Origin: Marsupella aquatica
Lineage: Eukaryota > Plantae > Marchantiophyta
Length of the DNA stretch: 64,000 nucleotides
Direction of reading: 5' to 3'
Assembly: GCA_973895155.1 (NCBI GenBank)
Contig: OZ316893.1
Span: 11,475,660-11,539,659, forward strand
The notes under the pieces are model-generated. The model was not told the DNA's origin, ran no database searches, and saw only the letters and a program-made list of their open reading frames with translations. The position numbers were made by a program, and so were the translations under genes. This document shows positions 24,761 to 58,700 of the stretch, piece by piece. Within the stretch, counting starts at the first letter, position 1. The number at the start of each line of letters is the position of its first letter.

Positions 24761-26408
24761 CTACTTAATTTCGAGCACTTCGATTTCAAAAACAAGAACA
24801 GAGTTGGGCTGGATCCCCCAGGCCGGAAAACCTGAAGCTCCGTATGCATAATCAGGAGAGCACTGTAGAAAATACAAACAAGGGGTCAGCCGCTCAAGAA
24901 CAACTGCTGGAATACGAAACAAGGGGATAAACCTCAGAACGATCAACTTAATTGCTTCCCAAAAGAGTTCGACAATCCGACCCACACTCAGAAACAAAGT
25001 GCATAAAAGACCGCAAAGCAATCTCGAAGAGCTGTTCCACCACATGCCCTCGATATGAACTTGGGAACTTCATTTGTCAAAGAAAATCCAAACATTTCAA
25101 CTGCAACGGACCCAGCTCTAGCTCAAAGGGTGGAAATAGTCATCACTTTTCCCTGTTTTCAAAAGTGTGGAGTAATTTGAGTCCAGTATGGAAGAACACA
25201 GGAGAAACGTACCTTAAGGCGGGCAACTTCACCAACGTTCATGCCCAAAACTCCCTCGTCCCATCCTGCACAGGCACGTTTGATTAGACTCGTTTCCAAA
25301 AGACAGATTCTACAACAAAACTCTCATAGACCAAATGACCAGTTAAATTTCTTTGGAAGATGGCCGCTTGCAGGACACGGATTTGAAAGCAGAGACTAGA
25401 CTATAAGTTTCCAGCACTCGCTTCCTGTAGACCGTTAACGTCCAGTCCTACTTCGTGACCACCCCAACGAACAGAAGATTCAACACAAAATCCGAGAAGA
25501 AACATGTAACCTATAATGCTTTGCCAATCTCGGAAAGTCATGCTTCTCCCTGACAATCACATCTTAATTAAACCTTCATTTTTGCAGCACATCGTTGTCT
25601 GATGGGCAGGTGCATACCTGCAATAACCTTCTTCCTTCCAATGGTAAACGTGAAGGGCTTCTGACCAGGATCCTTGGTGCTGCAAAGATAAGAAATCTGT
25701 GTAAGCATCAACAAACACACGCCGAAGTAAAGGAGAAACAACCGTCCAGAATGAGAAGCATCGATCCACCTTCTATGCCACAAGTCAGGACGTATGCACA
25801 ACCACAGATCTGACACAATGTGTACTTATAATTGGGTATCACGCATACCTCCAGAATTTCTTGGAGAGGTCTCTGTCCTTTCCTGCACAAGCAAAGTACG
25901 GTTCCGTCAAACCAAACCAAACCACACAGCTCCTCAATATACCCACAACAGTTGCAATGTGGTCAAATTTTGCGGGATCGCCAGCTTCACTTCGTGACAA
26001 CCTGCACCAGAGCTGAGGTCACAGGAGACCGTCCCCACTATCATATCGATCAAACACCTCCTTCACGGGGATCGTGAGAGCCCGACCGCCATCATCAAAG
26101 AGGGCCACCAAAAGAGCAGCTGACGGGCTTTCAAAGAAAGGTCACAATCACAGCGGAAGGCCGGACGTTGATGAAAACTGTTTGGAACATGAGGAAAGGA
26201 TAACGAGATGGATGAGCGAGTTTGTAAGTTCAGAGGCCTATCGAGAGAACAGGAAAGACCCAACAATCAAAAGAGTGAGAGAGAGGTGGAGAACGAAACA
26301 GAGCAATCCTTCACACTCACCGAAGCCAGTGCAGTGGACGGTAACGTCTTGGCCTGGTTGAGGCTTTGGGCCAGTCCCCTCCTGGAGGATTTCCTTCTCG
26401 AATCCCAT
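24761..26408 (-). CDS. FKBP12: Peptidyl-prolyl cis-trans isomerase FKBP12, 5 exons
   Basis: Exon 1 26408-26321, then exons near 25882-25849, 25680-25619, 25266-25214 and 24862-24761, giving [112 protein letters not shown], with the plant-type Cys pair. An in-frame upstream ATG lies at 26555. Confidence 0.96.
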
Positions 26409-33269: not shown

Positions 33270-34178
33270 ACTTGGGTTGGACTTCTCAATTCTTTTATTT
33301 TCCAGCATCCATTTCTTCATGGAGTTATATTGAAGTGGTTTTCCTCATTAGAGTTACACTAAAGTGGCTGAAACCAGACGAGTCTACCAGAACTTTGATT
33401 CAAGTTCAGGGAGTTATTCTTTGACATCTATACCAAGTGTTCAATACCTAGGTGAGACTGTGTTTAGGCCTTCTGGAGGTGCTTTCTCCAAAATTACCCC
33501 GAGTTCATAACATGACAAACTTAGCTCTAGATGAGTAGAGGCCAACTTTGTACAACAAGAGAGGAGGAAATAACTCTCTTGGCAATAATTTATGGGTTAA
33601 GCAACACTGCATATTTTGACCACTTGTGGGAATCATCCTCTCCATTTTGGTACTAGTCTCCTCCTGCCTTTCTCGTCCTCCATCTTCTCTTAGATGAAAT
33701 CAATTACATACAAGTTGGGCTTGAAGGAGTAGCAAGTGTAAGACTACCTCTGTGGCATACCCATTTTGATTGTAGATTTATTACTCATGGTCAGACGGGT
33801 AGTCCTGGAAAGATGGTAATCAAAGTGGTCCTTCAAGATTTCCATACCCATGTATTACTTGGGGAAAAACAATAGGATCAGTTTGCAAGGTACGCAATGT
33901 ACACTACTAATTTGCTATAAGCTCTAGTGCAAAGATAGCATTCCGTGATTTTCTCAAGGAAACAGGTTTCGAGAAAATTGGAAAAAGAGCGGGTAGGAAA
34001 GAAGCCTGCACAACTCTTCTACCATGATTTACAGTACAATGTTCAAAGTAAGGCGAATTTCTCTAGAGAAAAGGTAAAAAATTTCCTAGAATCAGAATTA
34101 CTACAAAATTGACAGACTAGCAAAAAACCAAATTAGCCATACTCAAATGAATCTCCCGTACTTGTGCATCTGATTCCA
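33270..34178. repeat. Diverged direct duplicate of the MGD1 3' flank (other copy ~41470-42098)
   Basis: Collinear matches, e.g. ccagcatccattt...agagttacactaaagtggctgaaaccaga, gtagtcctggaaagatggtaatcaaag and gaatctccc...cttgtgcatctgattcca; this copy is interrupted by a 333-bp insertion. Confidence 0.92.
33461..33793. mobile_element. Probable solo LTR (TG...CA, 5-bp TSD)
   Basis: Insertion starts tgttt and ends ggtca, flanked by gactg / gacgg; the paralogous empty site near 41714 carries gactg once (ttg-gactg-gtagtcc). Confidence 0.6.
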
Positions 34179-37073: not shown

Positions 37074-38071
37074 GAGATATATGCTTGATGGGCCCCCTGG
37101 TGAACCTTTCTTACCTGATGGGCCCCTAGGGAACTTTTTTTACCAAGTAGGACCCCTCTTAATGATCAGTACACATGTTCTTGTGTGGTGCCTACACCTG
37201 TCCTTGTGTGGTGCCTACTATGTATGGTGACTCCAAGCAAACTGCATAGTTGAACCGTGCGGTCAACCTTGCATGGTCGACCGAGAAACCACGGAGATGA
37301 TTTGGGAGAAACCGCGAAAAGCGATTGCCGCTGCCGAATCTGCGATTTGAAGACAATATGCATTATGTCTTCGGATTCACTGGGTTAATGCCTGAAGACA
37401 CAATGGATTATGTCTTCGGGTTCAAATTTTTACCGTATCGTGGGGTAGTTATTAGGTATGTTTTTCATGTTGCGCACATGGGTTTTTCACGATGTTTTCA
37501 TGCACGACTGTCAGTGTCAGTGTGGGGTACCTCCAAATGTCCACAAAGAATATTCAAGTTCAATGTTCGGAATTTGCCTACTGCCGCCACAACAAAAATT
37601 GGCAAATGATTGACAAATGCGCTCAAAAAATGGTAATACTCCCCTATGTAATGCATACAAACAATTTCCAAAGAAGACAGACCCAAAGGTGTCGGGTACA
37701 CCCTAAACCCTAAACCTTGAAACACGGGAAAACATAATCCATTGAGTCTTCAGGCATTAACCCATTGAATCCGAAGACATAATGCATATTGTCTTCAAAT
37801 CATAGTTTCGACAGCGGCAGTCGCTTTTCGCGGTTTCTCCCGAATCATCTCCGTGGTTTCTCGGTCGACCATGCAAGGTTGACTGCACGGTTCAACTGTG
37901 CAGTTTGCTTGGAGTCACCATACATAGTAGGCACCACACAAGGACAAGTGTAGGCACCACACAAGAACAGGTGTACTGGTCATTAAGAGGGGTCCTACTT
38001 GGTAAAAAAAGTTCCCTAGGGGCCCATCAGGTAAGAAAGGTTCACCAGGGGGCCCATCAAGCATATATCTC
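37074..38071. mobile_element. Non-autonomous Mutator-like (MULE) element, 998 bp, with 340-bp TIRs
   Basis: 37074-37413 is the near-perfect reverse complement of 37732-38071 (ends GAGATATATGC...GCATATATCTC); flanked by a 9-bp TSD AGATAAAGG (37065-37073, 38072-38080). No transposase. Confidence 0.92.
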
Positions 38072-39199: not shown

Positions 39200-40973
39200 T
39201 CTTCTTCTTTTTCTTAATCATGTTGGAAGGGGGAGGGAGGGTGCCAAAGAGCCAGGATAGGAGACTGGAAGGAGAGAAAGGTAGGGCACATTAGAGGAGA
39301 TTGAAGAGAAAAAGGAAAAAAAGTGAGTTTCTTTCCCTCCATGTAGCAGAGGGCGACCACACTTGACCCCGTAACACCCCAGCCGCCGCCCCATCTTGAG
39401 TTCACTCCCATGCTCTCACCCTCGCCCACAACATTGCTTCACAATAGCACCTTGGGACATGCTTTGCCTCAACATCTTTGCCTCGACTCGACAATTTTTC
39501 TCGTCTTCACATATTTTTTGTCTTCTTGGCATTATCTCCTCAGCAACTTTTATCATATTGACATGTTTTCTCTTCTCCTTGACATCCTTTTTCTCACCTC
39601 AATGTTCTTTTCAATCTCACGTCGACATATTTTTCTCACCTCGACATCTTTCCTCTCCATTTCACCTTTCCTCTCCTCAACATCTTTTATCACCTCAACA
39701 TCATTTTCTCACCTTGATAAATTTTCTCTTCTTGACATATTTTGTCCTTGGCATCTTTTACTCAGCTCAACATCATATTCTCATTTTCACATATTTTCTA
39801 TCATGGACATGATTTCCTCACTTTAATATCATTTTCTCACCTTGACATTTTTCTCTCATTAACGTTTTTCTCACCTCAACATCTTTTTCTCTCCTTGACA
39901 TCTCTTCCTCACCTCAACATCTTTTTCTCACCTAACATCTTCTGTGCAACGCACGGGCATTGGGCTATATATATTGTGCCAAAATTAACATGAGATTTTC
40001 ACACCCATAAACTATGACAAATATTACTATGGGTTTTCACCACAATTGTCTTACAAAAATTGACTTTTATCATCCTTGGAAGCAAATCAAAGAGGGGAAG
40101 AGGCAAGGAGAAAGGGGAAGGGGGGCACATGGATGGGAAAAGAGGGAGGGAGAGGCTTCATCTTGTCCCTTCCGGCCACGGGTAAGGGTGGAAAAAGTGT
40201 CAAGTTTATTTTCTCACCTCAAAATCTGTTGCTCTACTTTACATATTTTTCTTCTCAAAATCTTTTTCTCCCCTTTGCACACGTTTCTCTCCTCAACATC
40301 ATTTGTTCACCTAGACATATTTTTGCTCCTCAAATTTTTTCTCATCTCAACATCTATTTCTCTCCTCAACATCTTTTCTCTCCTGGACATATGATTCTCA
40401 CTTCAAGGACATCTTTTCTCTCTTTGACATCTTTTTCTCTCCTTGACTTCTCTCTCCTGGACATATGATTCTCACTTCAAGGACATTTGTTCTCTCTTTG
40501 ACATCTTTTTCTCTCCTCGACTTCTTTTATCACCTCGACATCTTTTCCTCACCTTGACATCTTTTCTCACCTTGACATCTTTTCGCTCCTTGATATCTTT
40601 TATCACCTTGACATCTTTTCTCTCCTCGATATCTTCTATCACCTTGACATCTTTTCTCTCCTGGATATTTTCGATCTATCACCTTGACATTTTTTCTTTC
40701 CTCGACATCTTTTATTACCTCGACAGATTTTCTCTCCTCGACATCTTTTATCACCTCGACATCTTTTCTGTCCTTGACATTTTTTTGCTCCTTGACATCT
40801 TTTATCACCTTGACATCTTTTATCTCCTCGACATCTTTTATCTCCTCGACATCTTCTATCACCTCGACATCTTTTGCTCACCTCAACAGTTTTTCTCTCC
40901 TCGACATCTTTTATCACCTCAACATCTTTTCTCTCCTCTACATCTTTCGTGCAACGCACAGGCATTGGGCTAG
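39200..40973 (+). mobile_element. Non-autonomous Helitron remnant with CT-rich minisatellites (5' boundary uncertain)
   Basis: Helitron-type 3' end: hairpin cgtgcaacgcac(a)g + gcattggg + CTAG|T at 40948-40974; a second degenerate end (gtgcaacgcacgggcattgggctat) at ~39943-39968. Confidence 0.7.
40205..40946. repeat. Minisatellite, ~18-20-bp unit (tcacctcgacatcttttc); a more degenerate array lies at ~39460-39941
   Basis: Dozens of cct(c/t)gacatctttt variants; explains the repetitive LDIF/RCQGD ORFs in the track. Confidence 0.92.
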
Positions 40974-42166
40974 TCATACATGAATGATTACTAGAGAAAT
41001 ACATAGACCTGGCTGAGCACCTATTTAGGGTCTGTTATCTCAGTCAAGTCCTTGCTTAAGTGTTACAGTGAGTAATTGAGAGTGTGCAAGCTATTCTCCC
41101 AACCTTTCTTGCATTGCTCTGGGAAGCGACATCTTTCGTATGCTTTCTAGAGTTACGCCTACTGGATTCAAGGCATTTCGTTGTGCTTGATATGACCATT
41201 GGTCACATACAACTTTGGACTACTTTAGCGTCGTCAGTCGAGCCTACTTTCGCCCTGGTAGTTTGTAGTGTAAAATGCGCGTGAGCTGTGTGGTAGAGAG
41301 TTTTCGACCTTCATCATGACGGATTGGTTTGATATGGTCTCTTCAGCAGCACACCTGTTATCTACTTATTAGTAGTGGAAGGTATGGACAGTGCAAGTTC
41401 TTTGAAGCTTACCTTACGTACAATTGCACAATCTGGTGCAGTGGAGGTTCGGTCTGTGGTGGAACAAAATTTGGGTTGAACTTCTTGATTCTTTACTTTC
41501 CAGCATCCATTTCCTCATGGAGTTATGTTATTGAAGTGGTTTTCCTCGTTAGAGTTACACTAAAGTGGCTGAAACCAGATGAGATGAGTCTACCTGAACT
41601 TTGATTCAAGTTCAGGGTGAGCTATTCTTTGACATCTACACGAATTCAAGTTCAGGGTGAGTTATTCTTTGACACCTACACAAACTCGCGGGTGTTCAAT
41701 ACCTAGGTGAATTGGACTGGTAGTCCTGGAAAGATGGTAATCAAAGGGGTCCTTCAAGCTGTCCATACCCATGTATTACTTGGGAAAAAACAATAGAATC
41801 AGTTCGCAAGATCTGCAAAACCACCTTTTGATGTACACTACTAATTGTCTATAAGCTCTAGTGCAAAGATAGCATTCCATGATTTTCTCAAGGAAACAAG
41901 TGTCAAGAAAATTGGAACAGGAAAGAAGCCTGCACGGCTCCTCTACCACGATTTACGGTACAATGTTCAAAGGCGGATCTTTGTGGAGAAAAGGTAAAAA
42001 ACTCCCTGGAATCAGAATTACTACAAATTTGACAAACTAGCAAAAAACCAATTTAGCCATACTCGAATGAATCTCCCGGACTTGTGCATCTGATTCCAGA
42101 AGTGATGTATGAAGCTATTGAATATATCTCTGCTTAAGACCCTGTGTTCCACCGGAGTGTTCCCAA

Positions 42167-45100
42167 TTACACATATGCAAATTTGCGTTCATCCAAAGTC
42201 TTCCGAGTTCGTGCCAATTCATCGATGTCATGGACAATTTTGAAAACAGCATCTGGTCGTCCCAGCTTGGCTGCATTTTGGGCCATTTCCTTGAACTCCG
42301 CAGCCTTTGGACCAAACCAATCAGCTACAATGGAAGCAATCTCTTGGGGCTTCTCACAGAATTTTCCTGCAGCATTCTCAACCACAAATGATACGTTTCC
42401 CACTTCCTGCATGTCAACCAAAGTCTATTCAGTTCCATAACTCGGTATTGCCAACCAAATTGGTTGGTCTCTGGCAAGTAAATTGTTTCATTTTATGGTA
42501 CTTGCTTCAAAACTAGAGCAGGATGTTCAAGTATACTGAAAGCAGCCACAGCAATCAGAGTACATATCTCGGGATGCCCATGCAACACAATTTAAGCTAG
42601 AAGTAAGTTCGTGAATTACCTGGCCGGCAATGTAGCTATTTAATATCATTGGTAACCCGCAGATCATGGCCTCAGCTATTGTTCCTGGTCCAGCCTGCAT
42701 CCAAACAGTTACTCAATGCCGATGCTCGTACTTATAATTACTTAATTCCATCTCCAGCAAGACTTATCCATACATTCGCAATATTGGACTACACGCATTT
42801 GGGTATATGCACGAAACCAAAGAGACCATTTAGAAAGAATATTTTAACTGCTCCACAATGACAGATTCTTAAGATACGTCTTAACAGAGTAAAATTCTTT
42901 ACTACGTGAAGGTTTAGCCCTGCTTTCCCCCAAAAAATCCAACAAAACAAATAAGCTCATGCTTGAATTTCGCATCAACGGGGCGCCACATCAATAGTGC
43001 CCTAGTTTTTTTAATCTGTAAAAAGGCAGAAATCTGATTGTACTTGAGATATTCAGGACGTGGAATTTTTCCGGTACCTTGGTTATAACACAATCACATG
43101 CCCCCATCCAGTCAGGCATGTTGGTCACAAACCCCTGAATCTGTTTAATGGACAAGATTCCAACCTTTGGCCATCAGTAAGATATTCATTAACAATTTGG
43201 AGAACCTTATTATCCATTTCTGAGTCTGTCCTACAACTACAAACAAGCGCACATAAACCGTAACCCACTAAACCCAAAAGGGCCACGGGAATCGAGAGAC
43301 AACCAGCAGACAAGGTCTGTGAAGCATCGTAAACAACTAGCACAAGGGGTGAGGATTTAAAGCAGGGATACCTTTACAGGTACAGTCCAATCAAAGGACT
43401 CCAGCTTGCTGACCAGCTTCTTGTTTCGCCCACAAATGACTACAAGCTGGCCTATGGGTTTTTTCGAGTCCTGATCGTATAGTGACTCCAGAAGAGCATG
43501 AGCGGTTGTCTCCACTGGACCCATTCCTTCCCCACCTCCCATAAGAAGAACCGCCGGCAGATCATCTACTAGTCCCAGTTCCTTCCGCAGCTGAGCCTGA
43601 CAAGTGGCAAAAGTGCTAAAATGCTCTCAGTTGCACATACTAATTAAAAAGTAATATTTCAGGAACAACCAAGTTATTTGGCGAGGAGAACAGTGGTCCG
43701 AGGTTCTTTTCAGAAGTTTCCAGACGAAAACACGGGGATCTGGTTCTCCTGAGGCTCTCGACACACTGGTAGGACACCTGCATGATGTTATCTATCTTCC
43801 ACCAGTTCTACGAGCAAAATCAAATTTTTGCGCCACAGAGGAAATTAATGCTCTGAATTAGGGCATAGTTTGTTTAATCTATACAATGGCTGCCTCTTTC
43901 CTTGAATTGATATTAAAAGCAACAAACGTAAATTCAGAGCATCTAATGCACAACTGTATAAGCATATCATCACATTGGAGTCGGCTTTCCTAGTCATAAT
44001 AGTCATAGTCACTCACACAAAGGGTTCCAAGGTTACGTAAGTCGACGAAGGGCCTGGATAGTCCCAATCCTCAGTACGTGCCATCTGAAACGACTAGTAA
44101 ACATCAATTCCAAAACGGAGCTATTTTACCTGAGAACGAAGAGACTGACTGAAGCCAGGTCTTATCGGTAGACCGTATACACGCAGCTGTGATGGACGTA
44201 AGCCAGCCTTGAGAGCGCGTCGCTCCACATCTTTGGTTGGACAGAAACATCTTGTGACTGATCTATGAAACCTGCGGGTGTCGCTTACAAAACGTACGGC
44301 TTTAGCAAGTATCGATGCCTTCTCATAGATAGAACATGTAACAACTGGACGGTACCAAACACTGCACAAAGATACTACAGACAGCTGCTACAATATGCAC
44401 CGGATAGTAGAAAAAGGTGAAAACACCATACCATGTGGGATGACAAGTACTGAGATCAGTGATAACGGTGGTGAAGGGAATCTTGCCCAAAAGTCCTTTT
44501 GCCCTTAATATTCGCAAGGGAACATGTTGCATAAGTGGATGTACGCTCACAATAACATCCGGTTGGTACTTCAGCAGCCCCTTAGTCACCTCTCTGACTT
44601 CCCATCAGCATTCCCACCAACTCAGGGTGTAAAAATTCAGTCCCAGAACATTACCGATTTAGCAACTGGAAACAAAAAAAGCAAGTACAGATCCCGTTTT
44701 TCCTCCACATCCTAGCTCAGACATGAGAAATGTCAACCTTTGAAACCGTCAGTTCCCCATTAGTGGACGAGAAATATTTATCATAGTCTTGAACAAATCT
44801 CAAACACAAGCCCGTCCAGGATGGTAGTACCGGGCAATGAAAGTCGACGTGGCAGCCATCTGAGACTGATGAATGAAGCGTGGGGCTGTGCTATGGTATG
44901 CAAGTTTCCAGAGCGCCTCATGCTTGACCATAAAACTGTATGTTTTTGGCACTTGATTGAACGGCCATGGGGTGTAGTCTTGCCATAAGTCGATGATAGT
45001 CACCTGAATCCCCAACAAGCGGCCAATATACCATAATCACTTCAGCTACAGTGGTGCATATTCGATCCGTCATTACATCGTACCAGAGGAAGCGTGGTGT

Positions 45101-46673
45101 ACTACTGTTCTTAGTTCCCGCTCTGGATTCATGCACAAACTATGAACAGATTGAGCCAGTAGATCAATAAACACCACTTCAAAAGGGAATCTGAGAACTC
45201 TATCTGCCATTCTCTATCAGTAAGGAGACAACCAAGTGAAATGGGAGTTTGCTCCCGAGGGATCCCCATTCGTGCTCTACAATTTTCTAATATAGGCAGA
45301 AGGATTGCCAATATCGTAGCAGAAGAGGAAGGACAAAAGATAGGGTAGGGCAGCAGCCCAACATGACGTAAAGAGACTTGAAATTCCGAAGCGGAAAAGG
45401 AATTCGAAACCCTTAAAAAATATACCGAATCCTACATGAAACAATTTCTGGACAACGGATCAGAAGAGTTACGACCGAAGTTGCAGTTTTCTTAGATTGA
45501 AACAGAGAAGACTTCAGAAAGAATGGACGTCATTTGAAAGCTCTTCACATGTTTCAAAAAACGAGCCTGAAGATCGGGAAGCAGAGACATAAATAATTCA
45601 TCACGAATTTAACAGACCAGCAACCGCTTTGCTTTGGTTGACCTTTAGGGCTAACACCTTAGCGAGAGAATGGGACAGAGTAATCACTCGCCTTATACTC
45701 GTCACCGAACTCGAGTTCGAAGGTCGCTTTTATAGCCTCAGCAGATGCACGATGCCCCCCACCAGTGTCACTCATTAGAATGAGAACTTTTTTGAACCTC
45801 CGCGGTTCCAGTTGTAAGGCTCCATCATCCTCCGTCACAAGACCTCCGTTTTCAAAATTTTGGCCCCTACTAATATCGTCCCTACCAAGCAAGGCTCCAC
45901 CAAATGGGACTCCTCCCAAAGGCACCCGTTCGGTTCCTCGTTTGATCAACCTATTTACCGTCTCTAAAAGCCTGGCTTGCCTGCTCCTTGCCCCTTCTAA
46001 CCCAGCTGTTACTGAAGCAGCAACGAGACACTTTTGCCCACCTAAAATCCCAATCTGCTTGCTCTTCCTCCCGCATGGATTCATAAGATTCGCCCGCCTG
46101 ATGCTAGAGCCATCTATCCACAACAAAAGCCCACGCGTGCGTTTAGCGGAGATGTTACTGAAGAGATGTCTACATAGAAGTAGACATTGCGTGATACGCC
46201 CAGCTAGAGCTCCCAAAATTACACGGTTAGCTATAATTACAGCTCGCCAACAATGGCCCGTGCAGTCAGGCCTTTACAATGCAACCAACAAAATTTGTAA
46301 CGACAGTAATGCATTATGCACAGAAGCCCTGAAGACGACCCATGCAAAAACCAGCGGGAGGGAGACATCTGAATGTGAATTGCCCGCAACAAAAGGTCCA
46401 AAGTTTCTCAACCCATCGATCTCGCTGCAGCTGCCATTAAAGCACAACGACTATTTCGGATACAAGAGAGCATAAAAGCACGAGGGAATCAAAGAAGGAA
46501 CGATTTTACACATAAGGTCCCACACAGAGCGAGGAGGAAGAAAGTAAAAACAGAAATGGAGACAAAAGCAGAGAAAATGCCTCACCGAAACCACCAGGAA
46601 GGACTGTAGCGACTGGGCCTAGGCAAGGCTTAGGGCCAGTGCCCTCCTTAAGGATCTCCTGCTCGAATCCCAT
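42167..46673 (-). CDS. MGD1: Monogalactosyldiacylglycerol synthase (type A, MGD1-like; GT28)
   Basis: [109 protein letters not shown]. Approximate exons: 46113-45692, 45003-44831, 44593-44432, 44271-44130, 43596-43372, 43140-43078, 42694-42620, 42406-42167. The start is uncertain: either the FKBP12-like exon 46673-46586 or the internal ATG at 46084. Confidence 0.93.
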
Positions 46674-46947
46674 GACGTTTACCAATTCGAGATGGGCACT
46701 TGCGGCAATCGGCTATTTCTCCTTCCTCCCTTGGGCCACGACAGCTGCTACGATTTCCGAAGAAAACGTCATCCCAACAACGCAAGATGGCACCCGAGAG
46801 CCAGAGGCCATGGCGTTGTATCGTCTAGCAGACGCTCTTCACTTCCATTTCAGACCCACAGTAGATCGATCCCTTCTCTCCTTTCTCGCTCTCTCGGGTC
46901 CTGCAGCTCCTGATCTGGAGATTACAAGTCAGAGCAACATTCAAACC
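46344..46947 (-). other. FKBP12-derived 5' cassette, copy 1 (leader + 88-nt exon 46673-46586 + intron start)
   Basis: Exon encodes [30 protein letters not shown] (19 of 29 residues identical to FKBP12 exon 1) and ends G|gtgag; collinear with 52345-52940. Confidence 0.9.
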
Positions 46948-47389
46948 TTCTCCCTACTCCTTTGTCCGGTTGGGTGGAGGTTGGGATAGCGTGGACCACG
47001 TCAGCGGATTTCCATTTGGCTGATTGTGAGAAAACTCCAACTGCGGCACTGCAGGTACTGCCGTACTGTACTATACACAGCGTCCCAGGCTTGGCATTGT
47101 TAACCACGGTATGACACTACAGTAGTGCTGACTTACGGTAGCCTAAACAGTACAGCAGGAGTGATTTACAGTAGCCTAAGCTGAAACACCAGTGCGTTAC
47201 AGCAGCCCCTTTATGAAGAAGAAGGAGAATGATACGTGAGTCAACATTATTTTAACTCCAAAGGAGCCAAAACCCATCCATTTGACACCCGAGTGGCCAA
47301 AACCCAAAAGGACACGAGAAGATAAGTTGGCTAGACCGGCGAAGAGGCAAAGAAAACGAAAGGAAGGAACGGAAGGTGACCACCGCACA

Positions 47390-47428
47390 GAGGAGAAGAG
47401 AGGAGGAGAGGAGAGGAGAGGAGAGGAG
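47390..47428. repeat. (GAGGA)n microsatellite in a 5' leader
   Basis: Directly visible pentamer run just before the ATG at 47440. Confidence 0.85.
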
Positions 47429-47439
47429 ACGCAGCAGCT

Positions 47440-48003
47440 ATGGCGTCGTGTTCAGCAGCAGCAACGATGCCGAGCGCGCAGACGAGTGGACGCAGCTTCA
47501 GCGGATTGAGGTCGGTGTGCCCATCCCGCAAAACTGCTTTAGAAAATGTGTCGTTCGTCAAACACCTCAGAAGCAACAACAGCAACAGCAGCCAAAGGAT
47601 ATTTGCCGAACCTCCAGACGGGAAACCAACAAGTCCCTTCACTCAAGTTGGATCGTCTAAGCCAACGGCTCCACCAAATCCTTTCAGGAAAGCTCCTTTA
47701 ATTCCGGCTGATTGGGAGAAAGCAGGAGCTAGACCAGCAGGTTCAGGGAAGAGAGTATTGGATGCTTTCAAGGAAGGAGAGAAGACGGGCACCACAACCA
47801 AGTTCGGGCAACCTATGGTACCTAAGAATATATTTGATGAAGTGAGGCGAACACCAGAGGAAATTGCCGCGGATGCCTTCAAGTTTGAGATAAGTCCTGG
47901 GCAGGTCTTCTTGGCTGGTTCATTTCTGGTAGTTATAGCGATTATGTTTGGCACCGTTTTCCTCGTATGGAAAGTGGGTGCCATACACTTCAATGAATAC
48001 TAG
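47440..48003 (+). CDS. Uncharacterised plastid-targeted protein with C-terminal TM helix (187 aa, single exon)
   Basis: Transit-peptide-like start MASCSAAATMPSAQTSGRSFSGLR; TM VFLAGSFLVVIAIMFGTVFLVW; C-terminus KVGAIHFNEY*. Confidence 0.8.
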   Translation: MASCSAAATMPSAQTSGRSFSGLRSVCPSRKTALENVSFVKHLRSNNSNSSQRIFAEPPDGKPTSPFTQVGSSKPTAPPNPFRKAPLIPADWEKAGARPAGSGKRVLDAFKEGEKTGTTTKFGQPMVPKNIFDEVRRTPEEIAADAFKFEISPGQVFLAGSFLVVIAIMFGTVFLVWKVGAIHFNEY

Positions 48004-50959
48004 GTCTTTTTGCTATTCCTCTAGTCGGCTATGAGGGAGGATAGTAATACCCATGTACATATAAACGAGTCGCTGGTTCTATCTTGCTCTCAATATTAAT
48101 GAGTCGCTCCTTCTATCTTGCTCTCTGGTCTAATTGTGTACATCGCAAGCATGGCAATCCAATTTTGTGAAAGCAGACGAGTCTGCACATCTTTGATCTG
48201 ATCAGTGATACGGACTTCTATCTGTTGATTCTCTGCTTGGTTTGGACTGTTCCTTGTCGTCAATTGCCGTCTTCGCATCGCTGATGTGTGTCCATCATAA
48301 TTTTGAGAGGACATGATCCCCCCAGTCACCAGGAGAGTTGCTCGTGTAATTCAAATTCATGATCTCGTACATCCACGAACTTGCAGAATTTACACTCCGG
48401 AATATAGTTACCATCTTCAAAGGTTCAAAGTGGACAGTACTCCGGACCTGCCTCCTCTGTGCGCAGACGATTCCGCACAAACTGCGCCTTGGCTCTTAGA
48501 GTAGAAAAAATTTTCACAACTAATTCAGATTCCTTATTTGGGGTTGAGTTATGTAGGCAATAGTAGGAGCTGAGAATGATCAAACCAGTTCTCGATGAAA
48601 TATTTACTTTTACAGAAACACAGTGTTCTACTCTACTTTGAATCTGAGAGTGATCTTTGGGCAACCTACTAGAGCGCTGGTAGCTTCACATTCACGATCT
48701 GATGACAAAAATGTATGCATGAAAGACGTCATCCATTCCTAAAAGCTAGGAAAAACGACCGGTCTCAAGGAGAATAGCAGAACAATATCTTGGTCCAAGA
48801 TTTGAGGTTTAAGTGCCTTACGACAGCCCCTGATTATTCATGTAACAAAAAAAGAGCAGAGATATGGACGAGTAAATATCATGTGCCAGCCTTCCAGCGC
48901 TCTGAAAGAGTGAGAAAACGTGTGCTAGGAAATCATGGGGGATGGGTAACAAAGTCCCCGGCAGTACTAATGACAAGATCAATTCTGAGCAATTGCTAAT
49001 TTCCTTGGTTTACTGGGAGAATAATTACCTTGAAATGATTGTGCTACCGTTCGAGTGCAAGTTCTGCTGACCGGGTCAAGCTCCCCATTGCTACGTGACT
49101 CATGGCTTATGGGAGATCAGAATCACGATCTTCTGACGGACATTATAATCGATGCACTTTCTATGCCTGTCGAAGCAAATTGTTTCTCTTTGTACACGGC
49201 AGTGCTTTCCTTCATCGTGGCGATCACTGTCCTTCTCGATGAGAAACATGAACTCTACGGATCCAGTCCTATGCCTCCTTTGGATTTCTCAGACGAGCAC
49301 CGCATTTTGATTCGGCAAACAAGCCAGGCAATTTCGGCTACAGAGCACGATGATATCAGCCATGACTTCCAGTTGTCCAACACTGATGACGGGAGGCACC
49401 AGAAGTTCGGAAATGGGCAAAGACCCACAAATCTTGTTGGCACTGAATATATCAGGGAAGATAACCGCGAGGCTGCAGATCCAGAACAGGCACGACATTA
49501 TTAGCAAATACCCGTTCAAATCGTCCTAGGTCTTGCTCATGAAGTGCAGGGGTGGTGAAAACCAATATCTTGGGAGGCCCTTGTTTAGAAAGAGTTGTCA
49601 TGCTCATTCTCTTTGGAGTTCTTTCTGCTCTTCCAGGTGGTGACACATTCCCTAAGTAAGCTTTCAAAATAGTCAAAATACTTTGGAGAGAGGGCCATGT
49701 GATGAAGGATACATTTTTGCGACAGCCCCGATGCAATTCAATGAAGACATTTTTAGGTTGGCAATTTTGATCATTTTGGTTCGTTGATAATGCTTCTTGC
49801 GTATTGCGCAAGGATAGATGCTGGAGTGGTCTTTTCACGTTGTGCTATTGGTGGAGTGCATTTGATGAGTCTTCGGGATCGCTGCTAGTCCAAGGTGATA
49901 CTAACGTTCATGAGGGATTGCCGCTAGTCCAGGGTGACCCAATATCGACTTTCACTTTGATGTCTCGGTAAGATTATGCATTCCAAAGCCTCAAGTACCT
50001 GGAGGCCACTAGCACTTTTGTGATCATTTAGTTCTGTTCTGTAAATTTCAATTCTTATTGTTCTCTGATTTGGTTGAGTTTTGTGTTCATTCTTTGTAGT
50101 TTGTATGTTTGTTAAATTGATGGTAGAACAGACACAAATGTGTTGGCCAGGCCTAGAACTAGAGATACAATGGCACAGTAGGGATTAGAGTGGAAGAGTT
50201 CACAAATTCCTGACTCGGAAATGGTTGTCATTATCACTGAAGTACAACAGAAAGTAGCCTCTTGCTCACCTCACCTCCCAATGATTGAGGCTCTCTCAAT
50301 GTGGGTAATCAGATTACAGATGGGATCGGCCGACTACATGGCTGAGACTTCAACTTGGGACAAGAGCTTTTTCCCTAAGCCACAAAATGAACAAATTTAC
50401 AGCCAAAACTTCCAGATTGGTCCCATATTTGATTCAGTAACCTCCGTCCATTTTCTCTGCTCATAGAAGTAAGAATTTATCCAGTCATTACGACTACAAT
50501 TTCTTTTGAAGATACGTATCAGAAACTATTGGTAAACGAAGTCCTGTTGCGCCCAGAAGATACCTCGTTACTGCTGTTCAGCAGCTTCAAGATGCCCATT
50601 TCCGCGCTCGTTGCTGCTCTTCAGCAGCTTTTTCAAGATGCCCATTCCGCGCTCTTTGCTACTGTTCAGCAACTTACTCAAGTATGCCCATTTCCGAACT
50701 ACATCGACTACAACTTTGCCTAGGGAGCATTTGGTCTTCAAGCTTTCAAGAGGTGGACATGTATTCCTGCAAGCCCCTATATCTGCAAACGTAGATATTG
50801 GGGGGCGAACCTGATAATTCAATTAGTTTTGGGGCAGGTTAGTATTTTTTACTATTTTGGGGGACAGGATAGTAAAAAACGGTTCCAAGATGTAGCCAAC
50901 ATGGCACTCAGCTTAGGAACCAGATTCGTTCTCTTTCTCTTCCTCTTACCACTCACCTA

Positions 50960-52681
50960 CTATTGGGCTTCAGCACGGGGCTTTCGTCTCTTCCTCTTGT
51001 GTTTGGCATTTTCTGAAACAGTGAGGCCCTTGTCCTTCAAACTCTTCAGCTTCAAATCTTTGCGGGCTTTCACTTTGTCCTCAAATCCACTATCGAGCAT
51101 TTTCAATGAAGCAACCCGCTTTGCCTTGTAGACCTTAGTGATGCCTTTCAAGACGGCATCCTCTTCCGTTTCATATTCGTCCAATTTCTTCCCAATGGCA
51201 GACTCGATCCTTTGAATAAGCTCCACATCATACTGGGTTACCAGACTCACAGCCAAACCTCCTCTTCCAGCCCGAGCAGTTCGTCCTACACGGTGAATGT
51301 AGTCCCGAGCAAGTCTCGGAAGATCATAATTTATGACCAGATCAACTGTCGGAATGTCAAGACCTCTGCTTGCCACATCAGTGGCAATCAGAATAGGCAC
51401 TTGCCCAGCTTTGAATCGATTCAGTGACATCAACCGCTGCTGTTGCAGTTTCATCGAATGCAGTGCAGTGGTTTCTATCTCCAGCTCTTCCATAATAAGA
51501 CTCAACAAGTGGCAGGTCCGGCAACTGGCAGCAAATATAATGACAGAACGTATAGAGAGCTCCTCCAGACTGGACAACAGATGCAGAAGATAGACGTCTT
51601 TCGCATTCGCTGGCATAAACATGTACTGCTGTTTCAAGGACGCCACTGTGGTGGACTTCTCATTACCCTGATAGAAAAATGGCTTATCCTTCCCAAGAGA
51701 CAGATCTTGCACAACTTTCAGGCTACTTGTCATGGTTGCAGAAAACAGAAGGGTTTGGCGCTTGGCCGGAAGGCTCTGCAGCACGGTCCGCATCTCACCT
51801 TCAAACCCCGCGTCCAGAAGCCGATCCGCCTCATCGAGAACGAGAAACCTAGTGTTGGAGAAGTACCCTGCCATGTCCTTATCATTGATGAGATGGTCTT
51901 TGATCCGGCCAGGAGTGGCAATCACAACATGAGGCCTGCTCATCAAAGCCTGAGCCTGAGTCGTCATGTCCATCCCTCCCACTGCCACCACACACCGCAG
52001 GCTCATCGTCGAGCCCAGCGCTTTAAATTGGTCCGAGATTTGGAATGCCAGCTCGCGTGTGGGAGTCATGACGAGAGCGAAGATGCCATAAGGGTCCTCC
52101 GCCAGCTTCTGCAGGATTGGAAGAGCGAACGCAGCGGTCTTTCCGCTCCCTGTCTCCGCCAACCCTAACACATCCTTCCCTTGCAACACCTGAGGAATGC
52201 ACTGCCGCTGAATGGGAGTCGGCTTCGCCATCCCGAGCTCCCTACACGTCTTGTGCAGCCATGGCGATAACCCTAAATTGGCAAACGAAACTCCTCCTCC
52301 TCTATCGCCATCGCCATCATCGCCATCGACTCCTTCTCGAACCAGCAAAAACCAGCGGAAGTGAGAAATCTGACTGTGAATAGCCCGCAACAGAAGGTCG
52401 GACGTTTCTCAACCATCGATCTCGCTGAAGGTGCCATTAAAGGACGACGACTACTTCGGATACATACAAGAGTGCATGAAAGCATGAATGAGAGAATTAA
52501 CGTATGAGTGATTTTACACATAACGCCCCACAAAGACGGAGCAGGACGAAAGTAAAAGCCAAACCAGAGAAAAAAGCAAAGAAAATGCCTCACCAAAACC
52601 ACCAGAATGGAGGGTAGCGACTGGGCCTGGGCGAGGCTTAGGGCTAGTGCTCTCTTCGAGGATCACCTGCTCGAATCCCAT
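50960..52681 (-). CDS. RH36: DEAD-box ATP-dependent RNA helicase 36 (DDX49/Dbp8 family)
   Basis: Q motif GMAKPTPIQ, AETGSGKT, PTRELA, TPGR, DEAD, SAT, ASRGLDIP, HRVGRTAR and the RH36-type tail KAKRVASLKMLDSGFEDKVK; the body 50960-52335 is uninterrupted. There is no in-frame ATG before the conserved FANLGL, so the start is placed tentatively in the FKBP12-like exon 52681-52594. Confidence 0.93.
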
Positions 52682-52940
52682 GATGTCCACCATTTCGAGA
52701 TGGGCACTTCCGATAATCGGCTATTCCTCGTTCCTCGCTTCGGCCACCATAGCTGCTACGATTTCTGAAGAAAACGTCATACCAACAACGCAAGATGGCA
52801 CACGACAGCCAGAGTCCCTGGATTTGTACCGTCAAGCAGACTCTTCTCACTTCCGTTTGTGAATTTACAGCAAATCGGTCCCCGTCTCTCCTCTCTCTCA
52901 CTCTTTCACATCCTGCAGCTCCTGCTTTGGAGATTACAAA
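52345..52940 (-). other. FKBP12-derived 5' cassette, copy 2 (leader + 88-nt exon 52681-52594 + intron start)
   Basis: Exon encodes MGFEQVILEESTSPKPRPGPVATLHSGGF/G (17 of 29 residues identical to FKBP12 exon 1) and ends G|gtgag; the leader shares ggacatcATGGGATTCGAG with FKBP12. Confidence 0.9.
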
Positions 52941-53375
52941 GCTCCTGCTCTGGAGACGACAAGTACCAGCAACATCAAACCCCAAGACCTTCTCACTGCT
53001 CGTGAACCCCTCCGGAGACTACAAGCTCCTGCTCTGGAGACTACGAGTCAGAGCAAACCCCAAAAACATTCAAACCCCAAAAACATTCAAACCCCCCGAA
53101 CTTAAAACCCCTATCGTGAATTTCTCTCTTCTCTCAATCTTTCGCATCCTGCAGCTCCTGCTTTGGAGATTACAAGCGCCGGCTCTGGAGACTGCGAGTC
53201 AGAGCAACATTCAAACCCCAAGACCTTCTCACCGCTCGTAAAACCCTCGTGGAGTTTTCTCTTGCTCGTAAACCCCTCCTGAGATTACAAGGTCCAGCTC
53301 TAGAGACTACAAGTCAGAGCAGTATTCTAAAACCCCAGAAACGTCAAACCCCACGACCTCAAACCCTTATCGTGA
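52912..53375. repeat. Degenerate repeat array (gctcctgctctggagactacaagtcagagcaac...aaacccc), several copies
   Basis: A unit present once at 46900-46947 is repeated multiple times here. Confidence 0.75.
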
Positions 53376-55287
53376 ATCTTCGTTTGTTAGTCTGTCAAGG
53401 TTGTGAGACATTTGGCCATAAACAAATGTACGTATTTTTAATTTTATTTTTCAGTACCGTAGCCTCTAGGGTGGCTCCTGATGGTCATTGCATCATGGTC
53501 ATTGCATCAATCTTTCAGGCAAAGAGTTATTAAGTACGAGCCCTATGCCCGAGCTTTGCAGAGTGCAATGATGGCTGGCCCACAGGGCCGGGGTGGGGGG
53601 GCGCTGAGAGCCAAGAGAGGGCAAGTGGTAATTCAAATCGAATAGATACACAAATCTTCTAAAATATGTAACGGCCAGATTTGATTCCTGTCAATTCTGT
53701 ATTTCATAATGGAACGAAAGACGAAAAAAGGCGGGATCAGCTATTATAGTTATAGATGATTTTGGTAGTCCTTTCTGTCGATAGCCCTTAAGTACTAAAT
53801 TAAGATCCATCAAAATTGAAGTGTGTCAAAGCACACATAAGGCCTTATGGCTAAAATGTTTTTGATGTACCATCCTTATTGGGTATGTATTTAGGTAGCC
53901 TATAGCATTTTTCCTGGCCAGAAAAACAATATTGTCCTTGCTTGCTTTGACACCTTACCCTGCTGGTGAGTCCATAAAGTGAGACAATAGAAATATAATT
54001 TTTCTGCAATCTGATTGGTTCTTGCAAAGTTTTGAATTGCAAAAATGAAGGGCAGCACTTTGAGCAGGACCCTGACAGCAATGGACATAATCACTGGCCG
54101 GGGCAGGGTTGCTAGTGTGTGGTTTGGAGCCTTTCTTTCTTTGGTGGCAAAATTTGTTGAAATTCCACCTCCTTCAAAAGCCATAGTTTCACACCTAGCC
54201 ACAGAGCACACCATACTAACCCAAATGTAAAAGTTTCCCTTAAATCTAGGGACATCTAACTGTCCCAACTTTATTTAGCTAGGAAAATTAGATAAAGAGT
54301 AATTTTAACATCTTCGTCCTTCACAAAAGGTGACATTCTAATCTATCAAAGTTGTTAGACAATAAATATTCTTAGCGTTCAGACTGGGTGACAGTAGCAT
54401 TAGCCACCTGGCCAAAAAGAAAAATGACCCTCGTTTTGGTGCTTTTCGCACACGCGTGCCCTGCGGTGGAAGACACGCTTGACGGGGTGACGGCGTGTGG
54501 CAGCTGCAGTTAACAGAACAAGTGGCACTGCTCCCCCTACTCACAAAGGCATGCCCGCCACAGACCACTCAATCACTCCACTTACACACAATTACACATT
54601 ACACATCGACGTCCAGTAGCACTGTAGTGTCGGTGTAAGATCCTCTCACTCTACAGGGGGACCCTGCTACCGTCGATTTCAAGCCTTCCAACCGCAGTTA
54701 GAGCACGACGTTGTCGAAACCGAACCTGCGATCCAGGAAATCACTACCCATGGCCTGAATTGTCTACTCCAGTAGACTTTTTCACGAACCATTCGTCTAC
54801 TGTAGTATGGGTTTGTCAATTTTGGACTACGGTGTGGTTTCATTTGGTACGATGGGGAATGGTGGAGGTTTAGTGAATGCCCCGGTCGGTCGTGTGCGGA
54901 GAGGAATCCTATGAGAATATTCTTTTCTTAACCGTCGGTCCGCTAACTGTGGCGGTTACGGTGTCATGACGGTGCGATGTGGACATTCGAAGACCTCAAC
55001 TCTGTGATGTGGTGACACGTCATACTCCTTCCGTTTATTCGAATGTAGTGTTCTGAGTTCGTGTCGCAAGTAAGGAATCTTCGTTGCTCGAAATCCGTTT
55101 CTTCCCAAATGTGTTCGCTAAACCCCTGAATCATTCGGAGTCGGACTGCTTCAAATCATCGGCTTCTGTGATTCTTCGAGTACGTGGGTTGATCGAATTG
55201 ATCAGATCGAGAAATGGGCCGCAGTTGAGGTCAGATCAGCTCGCAGTAAGAGGTTAATGCCTGTTGTCGAAATTAGGGATTTCGCCT

Positions 55288-55295
55288 TAGGGTTT
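55288..55295. promoter_or_regulatory. Telo-box with nearby site II motif (TGGGCC ~55215) upstream of MTM1
   Basis: Exact TAGGGTTT; co-occurrence of site II and telo-box is known in plant promoters, but both motifs are short. Confidence 0.3.
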
Positions 55296-55778
55296 AGATT
55301 CTGTGCTTCAATTTGATCGAACTGCGTTCTGCTCCGCATTTTGAGAGTTGTAGAGAAAGAGCTCCTTCTCGTCTGTCTTCTTCGCTCGACGATGGCAGTC
55401 TACCGACGGAGGTTTGGCTCGACTTTATGTACGGAGGGACGAAGGAACTGCGCTCTGCTCATTGTCTCGGAGAGCGGGCTGAATTCTAGCTGAGATCCAG
55501 CGTGCACCATCTCGGAGATTCTTCGCTTGTCTCGCACTAAATCGATGTGAACTGTGGCGTCAAATCTCGAGGTGAATGAATGGTTGTCGACAGTGTGCAT
55601 GGGTCCTTTGGCGGTCGACGCAATTTTGCTGCTGATGTGTGATCATCAGGACTGAGGACTCTGCTGTGTGTTTTCTGGGTTGGATTTTGCAGAAAGGCGA
55701 GGAGAATTGCAGGAAATTCTGCTCGAAAGGGCGGACGTGGGCGTAGAAACATGTGCTAAGTGCAGGTGGATTGGCAGG

Positions 55779-58700
55779 ATGGTAGCCGAGAGCGTTCAGT
55801 CGTCTCGATCTGTATCTTCATATATGGTGCATCTATTAAGGTTGGACAGTGCGGGCGCGGTGAATTCTACTCAAGGAGGAGGTGAAGACCACCAGCAGCA
55901 GACGGACGCTTCAGCCTTGACTAGCAGCTTGGAGGAGAGAAATGGGCTTTTGGAAATGGAAGGACCACAGTTGAAGGATGTGAATATCAGAGAGAAAGCC
56001 GTCTCTGCTGCGGGGGCTGCCTTCCTTTCTGCCGTGTTGGTGAATCCTCTCGACGTTGCTAAGGTGTGTCTATCGGTCTATGTCTGCATAAGTTCCTTTT
56101 ATCTTCCGTCTTCTATCAAATGCGGAGTTTTGGGTTAGATTGTTTCCGTGAGTTTATCTCAACTTCAACGCATGAAAGTTAGCATATTCTATCCTCTCAT
56201 GCATCATAGTACAGCTTGTTCTCACAGAACATATGCGAATACTCGCCCATTGCCCGCTTATACATTCGCTCATACTATGATCTGTACCGCATTGGTGGTT
56301 TTGTAATGGGAAAGCATTCCAAGACTTGCTCTAGGCGAGGCTGGTTTCTCTGCCCGTTGGGGTGATGAGGGAGAAAGAAATTAGAGCTTCAGCCCTTAGA
56401 ATCCGCTTTACGCCCTCCGAACTCCGTAAGCTTTCTCATCGTGCTCATCCATAATGTGCTGCCCGAAGCAGGAGGTCTACGGCGAAAGTGGTGGCTGTGG
56501 AAGGCCATATTTTAAAGCTCCTGTGAACTAGGTCGCTGATCCACATTGTCGTATGAGATCAGCTCTATTCCCGGTTCTTGTTTTGGGGAGCAGCAAAGGA
56601 GCTCCTGTAGTTGCTAGGGGGAGAGTGGTCCCCCTGGTTGCGATGGATCTCATTATCCTGATTGATCCTGTGGGGCTATGAAACCAATCCTATGTGTGAT
56701 TCAATTGACGGAAGATGTAGTGATCCCTTTTGTTAGGTGATAAGTCGAGCTAAGCATTCTCTAGACGGGTTCACTTTTCTTCCCTTTTCTGACAGTGGGT
56801 CTGCTCAATTACTGCAGACTAGGTTGCAGGCGCAAGCAGCCGGTTTTGACTACAGCGGTAATGGGCAACTTCCAAGTTCAAGAGGACAAGAAAGGGTAAG
56901 ATTGAACGTAAACCTCTCCGTACTTCACCAGTTTGAAACGTTTCGCACAAGATTTAGATTGAGTCCATCGATTTAACATTGATAGTTCTTATCGAGGTCA
57001 GGTTTCTCATTACTACGGTCAGAGGGTCCTGGATAATGTTTACTTTACGGAACGATATGTTCTCCTCCAAAGGTTGTAGTTTGTAGAAGTGATATTCTAC
57101 TAAATTTTATTGAATCTCATGTTCCTCTGTATATCAGATTTTAACTGCTGGGAAATGCCCGCCTGTGTGTCCTCGCCTTGGCAATGCTGCACTTGCACCC
57201 CTGTGTGAACCAACATGCTTTCAGTACAAGGACACGTGGGACGTCTTTAGAAAAGTAGTTCGCCAGGTAAGCTGACATCTTCGAACATATACCTGAAAAT
57301 AATGTAATTTGAGACACTCGAAACATGGAGTTTTGATGGATCTGGAGAAACTGTTTGCTACCAGTAATCACAGTGCGTTTTCACCACTTTCTTTGGATGC
57401 TTTTGCATGAAAGAGTATTCTGTGTCTTGCTCGTTAATCATCCACTTTGAGACTGGATTCCCACTCCGTCGGTCGTTCTGACTCATTGCCACAGAATCTG
57501 TTCAGCAGCTTTTAAGCTATGATTTGATGGTTTATTTTGCAGGAAGGAGCCTTAAGACTTTGGAGAGGGACGCCTGCTGCCCTTGCCATTGCTATACCTA
57601 CGGTGACTCTCCTGACATTGCCTTATCTCCGTGCCATCGACATTTCATTTAATTTGAAGTTATCATGTTAAAAGATTTGACCTACTCTATACTTTCCTGA
57701 TGTGTTGTGATACCACTGGACATGGTCGGATAGCTACAAATCTTACTGATTTGGAGTTCTTGAGACACGTCTTGGCAGGTCGGTATATACCTTCCTTGCT
57801 ATGATGTACTGCGTGAGCGATTGGAGGATGCTGCCACTCACCACGCTCCACAGTTAGCTCCGTACACCCCATTTCTCGCTGGATCAATGGCCCGATCAAT
57901 TGCCTGTATTGTCTGCTCTCCCCTTGAGCTGGCAAGAACACGCATGCAGGTATAGATTATTGCTGGCACTTTTTGTGCTTTCATGAGCTCTACGACTACT
58001 GCACATCACCTTTATATTAGGCTGTCTAGGACTTTCAAATGTAGAATAGCCTGGTGTATCTCTTTAGGGGTTCTATAAGCTCCACTTGTGGCGATTGGGA
58101 TACTTTCAGATTGACGGTGTTTAGGCTATTTCCGACTTCTCAGTCAGGACGAGTTAATGAAGTATATGGACGTCAGGCCCTACTACTTCTTCCTGGTTCA
58201 GCGCACTCCTTTTACAAAGATGTGCCCGTAATCCAAATCTTACTTGAAGTGTCGTTTGTCTTCGAAACGTTATCTCATAGGCCACTGCCTGAACGTTTGA
58301 ATTAGTATTGTCTGTGTCCGTTGGCTGCAGGCTGCAAAACAGATACGTACTGGCGTAAAACCCCCTGGAGTTGTGGCAATTCTGCAAGGAGTTGTTTCGA
58401 CAATGACTGCAGCACAAAGCCCATGTAAGTATTACACAATTCTTGATTGGGACTGAGTAGAATGCTCTTGCAAGGGTTTAGAAATGAGGAAACTGCAGCA
58501 TCATGGTCGCCGATACTAGTCAAAAGTCTGTGGGCGTGAATTCTTTGCCGGGAGTAATATCTATTCTGCTTTGCACAGACCCTGGTTGCTCTCCCACCTA
58601 GCTTGTTCCAAGGGTACCTGAGAACTGTGATTTGTTTTGCAATCTTGCAGTGCAAGCAGTGCGGCTGCTATGGACAGGAGCAGGTGCTCAATTAGCCCGG

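Follow-up and report, generated by a model that had tools for sequence, protein, structure and literature searches.

An FKBP12-like first exon spliced in frame to MGD1 in a liverwort, and its possible reuse by a neighbouring helicase gene

The presequence of potato cytochrome c1 was reportedly gained by exon shuffling, in work attributed to Long et al. 1996. Targeting sequences are recognised to arise by exon shuffling, and a search for alternative first exons in transit peptides detected no candidates (PMC7456531). Transit peptides are described as void of acidic residues and rich in hydroxylated ones (PMC8836251, available portion). Type A MGD enzymes reside in the inner envelope and carry a transit peptide that is cleaved off and measures about 100 residues, the corresponding length for type B being about 30 residues (PMC5809773, in its accessible part), and Marchantia has one MGD gene (PMC10550880, as far as the available text goes). 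Chimeric genes that arose from partial duplications are known in Drosophila yakuba (PMC5460883) and in Oryza (PMC3673630, PMC9199173), by the accessible sections of these reports.

We hereby describe an MGD1 gene of Marsupella aquatica in which the front of the precursor resembles another gene, within a 64,000-nucleotide stretch of DNA analysed as a whole and called here the window. The gene lies on the minus strand, and its nine-exon model has 1590 nt and encodes 529 aa with one stop, which is terminal. Coding exon 1, likely derived from FKBP12, occupies 46586..46673 (88 nt, 29 codons plus 1 nt), with its ATG at 46673 and a phase-1 GT donor at 46585; it is followed by a phase-1 GT-AG intron of 472 nt (46114..46585, with a TAG acceptor ending at 46114), by exon 2 (45692..46113), which holds the remaining native leader and the start of the catalytic domain, and by exons 3-9 (42167..45003). 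The model is identical to two MGD proteins of Calypogeia fissa, P0121 and P0241, at 465 and 469 of 532 alignment columns respectively, exon 2 being 84% identical to P0121. The catalytic domains PF06925 (MGDG_synth) and PF04101 (GT28 C-terminal) are present in P0121, and the match to PDB 4wyi places the start of the catalytic domain at about residue 137.

Four of five listed sequence runs, none recorded as RNA, were compared with the window. Splicing of the model can be followed in X1, a run from a related species that is about 93-94% identical in exons; it comes from one study, is available as contigs, and its RNA status is a tool's guess. X1 skips all eight MGD introns at canonical ends and therefore behaves as spliced cDNA, and it differs from the window at 30 of the 423 bases of exon 2. 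Its 808-nt contig covers 44844-45002 and 45691-46113 and then joins 46586 and the 226 nt beyond, skipping 472 nt with GT..AG ends; since 582 + 226 = 808 nt, there are no letters between the joined pieces. Intron 2 (45004-45691, minus strand) is a GC-AG intron, and the X1 joint agrees with it. X1 cover is zero in MGD1 intron 1 and at 52739-52950, other isoforms being possible, and the run also contains a second, roughly 84%-identical contig set that seems to come from a different organism or a paralogue. The in-frame join of the phase-1 donor at 46586/46585 to the acceptor at 46114 had been proposed in an earlier sequence-only reading of this DNA, and it is borne out by the open 529-aa frame, by the X1 contig and by the two C. 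fissa proteins; the ctaaac branch-like motif that the same reading placed upstream of the acceptor was located at 46146-46141. The FKBP12-exon::MGD1 chimera is real and goes beyond chance, given the exon homology, the spliced X1 contig and the two C. fissa proteins: its parts are homologous to two unrelated parent genes, FKBP12 and MGD, and are joined in one in-frame spliced transcript in the related species. We consider it highly probable that a chimeric mRNA is formed in MGD1, the spliced contig being known from that relative.

The likely donor family is represented in the window itself, by an intact five-exon FKBP12 gene model (24761..26408, minus strand, 112 aa, Pfam FKBP_C on the last exon) that lies about 20 kb from MGD1 exon 1 on the same strand and that the sequence-only reading had not included. 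The first exons of the two genes have the same 88-nt length and the same phase-1 GTGAG donor, and they are collinear and identical at 66 of 88 nt. Similarity to FKBP12 reaches about 70 nt into the MGD1 5' UTR, with none of 2000 shuffles as good; these are the proximal nucleotides of the 5' leader that is present in the X1 contig (46674..46811, minus strand). An FKBP12 origin was not established for the far-upstream region and the intron body, for which p ranges from 0.002 to 0.97 by segment, the low values falling in GA- or T-rich sequence. FKBP12 exon 1 matches a 113-aa peptidylprolyl isomerase (PDB 8z28); the MGD copy, with 29 of the 112 FKBP12 codons, has neither a Pfam nor a PDB match, and the parent exon 1 alone likewise has no Pfam match. 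A complete FKBP domain (PF00254) is absent, with no Pfam match in the P0121 N-terminus or in the exon. Judged by its sequence, the MGD1 leader exon is a 29-codon remnant and not an FKBP domain. We know of no targeting role for the donor, a small FKBP. The FKBP12 gene also has an in-frame upstream ATG (26555-26409, minus strand), which would add 49 codons with a hydrophobic start and may be a chance feature of a CT-rich UTR.

Both C. fissa MGD proteins, which are annotation models located on different contigs, start with the FKBP12-like leader, and the frame across the junction is preserved in three taxa. An RNA-type contig shows the junction and both C. fissa proteins carry the leader, so the fusion predates their split. 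The leader is absent from the MGD proteins P0122, P0123, P0124 and P0195, of which P0122 is an MGD closer than that of Marchantia; among the MGDs without it are those of Marchantia paleacea, Riccia fluitans and Physcomitrium, and fern MGDs. When a search was scored on residues 1-75 of P0121, P0121 alone was found among 116 candidates; the profile used to look for leader-bearing proteins included 206 glycosyltransferase positions and was uninformative on the leader. At the position of intron 1 there is no intron in any of four metagenome MGD loci (L001-L004), moss-like and fern-like by sequence, all of which read open from the ATG to the next conserved D-E/K-Y-K/Q donor, and because of this the intron would likely have come together with the new exon. 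Within this sampling the FKBP12-MGD1 fusion appears lineage-limited, a putative rare genomic marker for a leafy liverwort clade.

What the new front does to the precursor was considered against a set of 82 of 120 homologues, mostly angiosperm, with 500-600 aa and a Met start and with P0121 excluded. MGD1 has 139 residues before the first catalytic motif (homologue median 140, range 124-193), so that the long N-terminal extension typical of type A MGDG synthase is present. The FKBP12-derived 30-residue remnant would likely act as the front of the transit peptide and be removed on import, and we judge normal plastid import of the chimeric precursor probable: with about 110 residues of the native leader behind the new front, the protein would still reach the envelope. 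A different outcome, in which the chimera is real and retargets MGD1, sending it for instance to the outer envelope as with type B, or lowers import, we hold to be unlikely, for all that the composition of the leader gives it some ground. Four D/E and two S/T are found in the first 30 residues, values reached by only 6 and 3 of the 82 homologues respectively, and over 60 residues MGD1 has 5 S/T, below every one of the 82, which makes it the most Ser/Thr-poor leader of the comparison and atypical for a transit peptide; three Glu/acidic leader positions are largely preserved in C. fissa, and the first 10 residues are stated to affect import strongly (PMC7456531, accessible text). Against it, the acidity of MGD1 is unremarkable over 60 residues, where 56 of 82 homologues equal or exceed it, and the bryophyte MGD leaders P0124 and P0195 are also acidic at the start. 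Moreover the MGD gene appears single, and type A MGD is described as crucial for photosynthetic membranes in Arabidopsis (PMC10550880, available text). Over the same 60 residues C. fissa stands at the Ser/Thr median of the homologue set. The count of MGD genes rests on contig depth in a second run, X2, which is flat at 14.1 across most of MGD and so suggests that there is no second copy at >=85% identity, a more divergent paralogue lying outside its reach. In the AlphaFold model of P0121, which is weak (mean pLDDT 62.9) and has few rows in this part, residues 1-73 are without structure. A loosely constrained leader with drifting amino-acid sites would fit, because at least four differences between X1 and the window in codons 1-19, with sites near piece ends omitted, all change amino acids (three codons), and because pN is 0.14 and pS 0.19 between the exons of the two copies described below.

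Where translation starts bears on two further explanations. The exon ATG at 46673 has a strong context (G at -3, G at +4) and is very probably the main start. It had been suggested that the internal ATG at 46084 gives a second isoform, and in an extreme form the FKBP-like exon would be mainly a 5' leader and the protein, shorter or as a second isoform, would start at Met40; this ATG is in frame, and the drift of the amino acids of the exon would suit such a role. However, its context is weak (C at -3, A at +4), it is preceded by the strong in-frame ATG and, at the splice junction, by an out-of-frame ATG, and the frame of that junction has been kept across taxa; neither P0121 nor P0241 contains a Met between positions 1 and 145, and because Met40 is absent in C. 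fissa the internal-ATG isoform looks unlikely. We give the leader-only explanation little credence, and of the sequence-only reading the in-frame chimeric N-terminus is supported and the two-isoform idea is not. Equally little credence is given to an N-terminus, more like a transit peptide, contributed by an upstream ORF, perhaps the old MGD1 start, through TAG readthrough or an unseen splice. This uORF (46713..46811, minus strand; 32 codons, or 19 from a second ATG at 46772) is in the MGD1 frame, its first ATG is strong, and its stop lies 39 nt before the main ATG. Its similarity to the P0122 N-terminus reaches p=0.007 when anchored, a score reached by 1 of 83 MGD N-termini, and the two copies of this region align without indels over the 138-nt leader; but anchoring was chosen after the unanchored test had failed (p=0.31), neither copy has lost the stop, the X1 contig goes no further than 46811, the first ATG of the uORF, and in the C. 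fissa models translation begins at the FKBP-like Met. The uORF may possibly be what is left of the old MGD1 start, separated from the gene by the stop of the incoming FKBP12 UTR, and as an in-frame uORF with a strong first ATG it could make the main start less used. The intron at 46115-46335 was also searched for remnants of the old leader and this candidate was rejected (p=0.56 in the MGD frame); its 53-codon stop-free run is matched in 123 of 2005 windows of other introns. An artefact or coincidence, that is a misassembly or a dead FKBP12 fragment upstream of an MGD whose first exon lies elsewhere, is very improbable. X2 is probably the sample behind the window and thus not independent, but X1 with its spliced junction, the two C. 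fissa proteins, and a contig of X4, a run of another study, that spans the FKBP-like exon with 3 differences all speak against it.

The 5' end of MGD1 is found a second time, in a position that the sequence-only reading had not taken up. The source module (46336..46930, minus strand) comprises the upstream region, UTR, exon and first 250 nt of the intron, and its second copy (52338..52939, minus strand; exon 52594-52681, with ATG and GTGAG donor intact) is fused to the intronless body of a DDX49/RH36-type DEAD-box helicase (50960..52335, minus strand) that is without its native ATG and about 41 N-terminal codons. The two copies are 81.6% identical across 604 columns, or 77-88% by sub-region. 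They agree against FKBP12 at 15 exon sites, as compared with 6 and 6 for the other pairings, and have UTR and intron sequence in common that FKBP12 lacks; the second copy therefore derives from the MGD version and not from FKBP12. An X4 contig (52143-52503, another study) bridges the junction of module and helicase without differences, and X2 bridges it as well. The module abuts the helicase at the point matching residue 42 of the C. fissa helicase P0001, which has an ordinary N-terminus; the window helicase is 92% identical to a C. fissa protein. Around this copy, units of 40-60 nt that are single in the MGD upstream region (46875-46948) are tandemly expanded at 52887-53377, and in DNA runs high-depth repeats at 50800-50890 and 53535-53600 flank the helicase and module.

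DEAD and Helicase_C domains, RH36 orthology and an F-x-x-L-G-L stretch before the Q motif were all found in the helicase. This stretch is present in 110 of 118 homologues, and the first in-frame helicase Met in the window lies 18 codons after it; the missing N-terminus was not found elsewhere in the window by tblastn. Three candidate phase-1 acceptor AGs, at 52336, 52333 and 52330, match the phase of the module exon and would give 485-487 residues with F-x-x-L-G-L kept, the candidates being GAG/AAG and not YAG, as against 12 of 12 reference introns that end in CAG or TAG. We think it somewhat probable that the module supplies the promoter and start of the helicase through the predicted phase-1 acceptor near 52333. 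Both X1 contigs depart from the window at 30 helicase sites, with 22 synonymous and 8 non-synonymous changes (expected synonymous share 24%; p about 1e-8), a pattern that points to purifying selection, though part of this branch may predate the capture. Contig depth in X2 is single over the helicase core, and DDX49/RH36 is apparently single-copy. The X1 helicase contig has 450 further letters unmatched to the window, and the X1 species therefore likely keeps a native start; the C. fissa MGD and helicase are on contigs of different sizes, so that the adjacency in the window is probably derived. In Arabidopsis RH36 is nuclear, and mutants are retarded in female gametophyte development (PMC11350083, accessible part).

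These observations can be assembled into a common origin. The resemblance to FKBP12 takes in the exon, its donor and about 70 nt of UTR, and splicing leaves an open frame. A partial duplication at the DNA level would have placed the 5' end of FKBP12 into or before the old single first exon of MGD1, a cryptic AG within that exon would have become the acceptor, and translation would start at 46673. A 600-bp copy of the 5' end of MGD1 now adjoins the helicase. Because the donor site and part of the intron were copied, both captures would likely be partial duplications of this kind. A handful of similar bases spans the helicase breakpoint, and microhomology-mediated repair would fit there, weakly. 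Among 17 inverted pairs in 45500-56000 there is none that encloses the module and helicase as the long terminal arms of a Pack-MULE or transposon; a transposon with degraded ends or a Helitron may yet have been involved. That the MGD1 exon was likely copied from FKBP12, with the remnant likely fronting the transit peptide, is as a whole an explanation we favour with fair confidence. The wider scheme, a serial capture from FKBP12 to MGD1 to RH36 of a portable 5' module (upstream region, uORF, exon and donor) that now starts the only copies of both recipients, is put forward tentatively, as an idea that falls a little short of an even chance.

Other features of the window were observed around these genes. 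Head to head with MGD1 lies a single-exon 187-aa ORF (47440-48003, plus strand) with no Pfam match and a Ser/Thr-rich start (15 in the first 50), covered by X1 contigs that extend to 49678; its product would likely be a plastid protein. The 3' flank of MGD1 is involved in another local partial duplication, 33272-34178 and 41471-42098 being 84-87% identical and about 8 kb apart. A 344-bp inverted repeat (37074-37417 and 37728-38071, 96% identical, 310 bp between) resembles a fold-back element or small non-autonomous transposon, and 39456-40972 is taken up by a long, degenerate array of tandem repeats whose copies are 67-78% alike. An intronless ORF of 374 codons at 5036-6160 (plus strand) presumably resembles organellar elongation factor Ts.

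The locus matters because the donor gene, the recipient and the outgroups are all known, which makes MGD1 a traceable transit-peptide change, and because the swapped part is the region held most important for import. It permits a test of how far the import machinery tolerates an acidic, Ser-poor front on a probably indispensable enzyme of the envelope. Should the helicase splice prove true, one borrowed start rescues a second, 5'-truncated housekeeping gene. If the serial capture is true, two housekeeping products, destined for the plastid envelope and the nucleus, begin with the same 30-residue front; that front would be neutral to targeting, and the locus, as a natural experiment, would contradict the idea that import is decided by the first residues of a transit peptide. 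In the literature covered, mostly without subscription papers, no published report of an FKBP12-MGD1 fusion was found.

Compared with the known type A MGDG synthases (Arabidopsis MGD1; Marchantia MpMGD, Mp2g10950), the liverwort protein has the same GT28 catalytic domain and a typical leader length, whereas an additional exon, likely taken from a different gene, encodes its first 30 residues, the outgroup leaders being contained in one exon. With FKBP12 it has in common the sequence, length and phase of exon 1 and the nearby UTR, although just 29 of 112 codons are present. As is reported for potato cytochrome c1, an organellar precursor owes its N-terminus to one or more exons of an unrelated gene; unlike it, MGD1 already had a leader and the front alone was replaced. 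As in the Drosophila yakuba and Oryza chimeras, by the accessible parts of those reports, a copied 5' segment was joined to a neighbouring gene body; by the same parts, the recipients here differ in that they appear to be sole housekeeping copies and not spare duplicates, and the module seems to have moved twice. The locus is thus probably a case of chimeric-gene formation by first-exon capture, repeated twice in one place, and what is probably new in it is that the front of an existing transit peptide was replaced by a fragment of an unrelated gene and that the same start was probably reused by a second gene.
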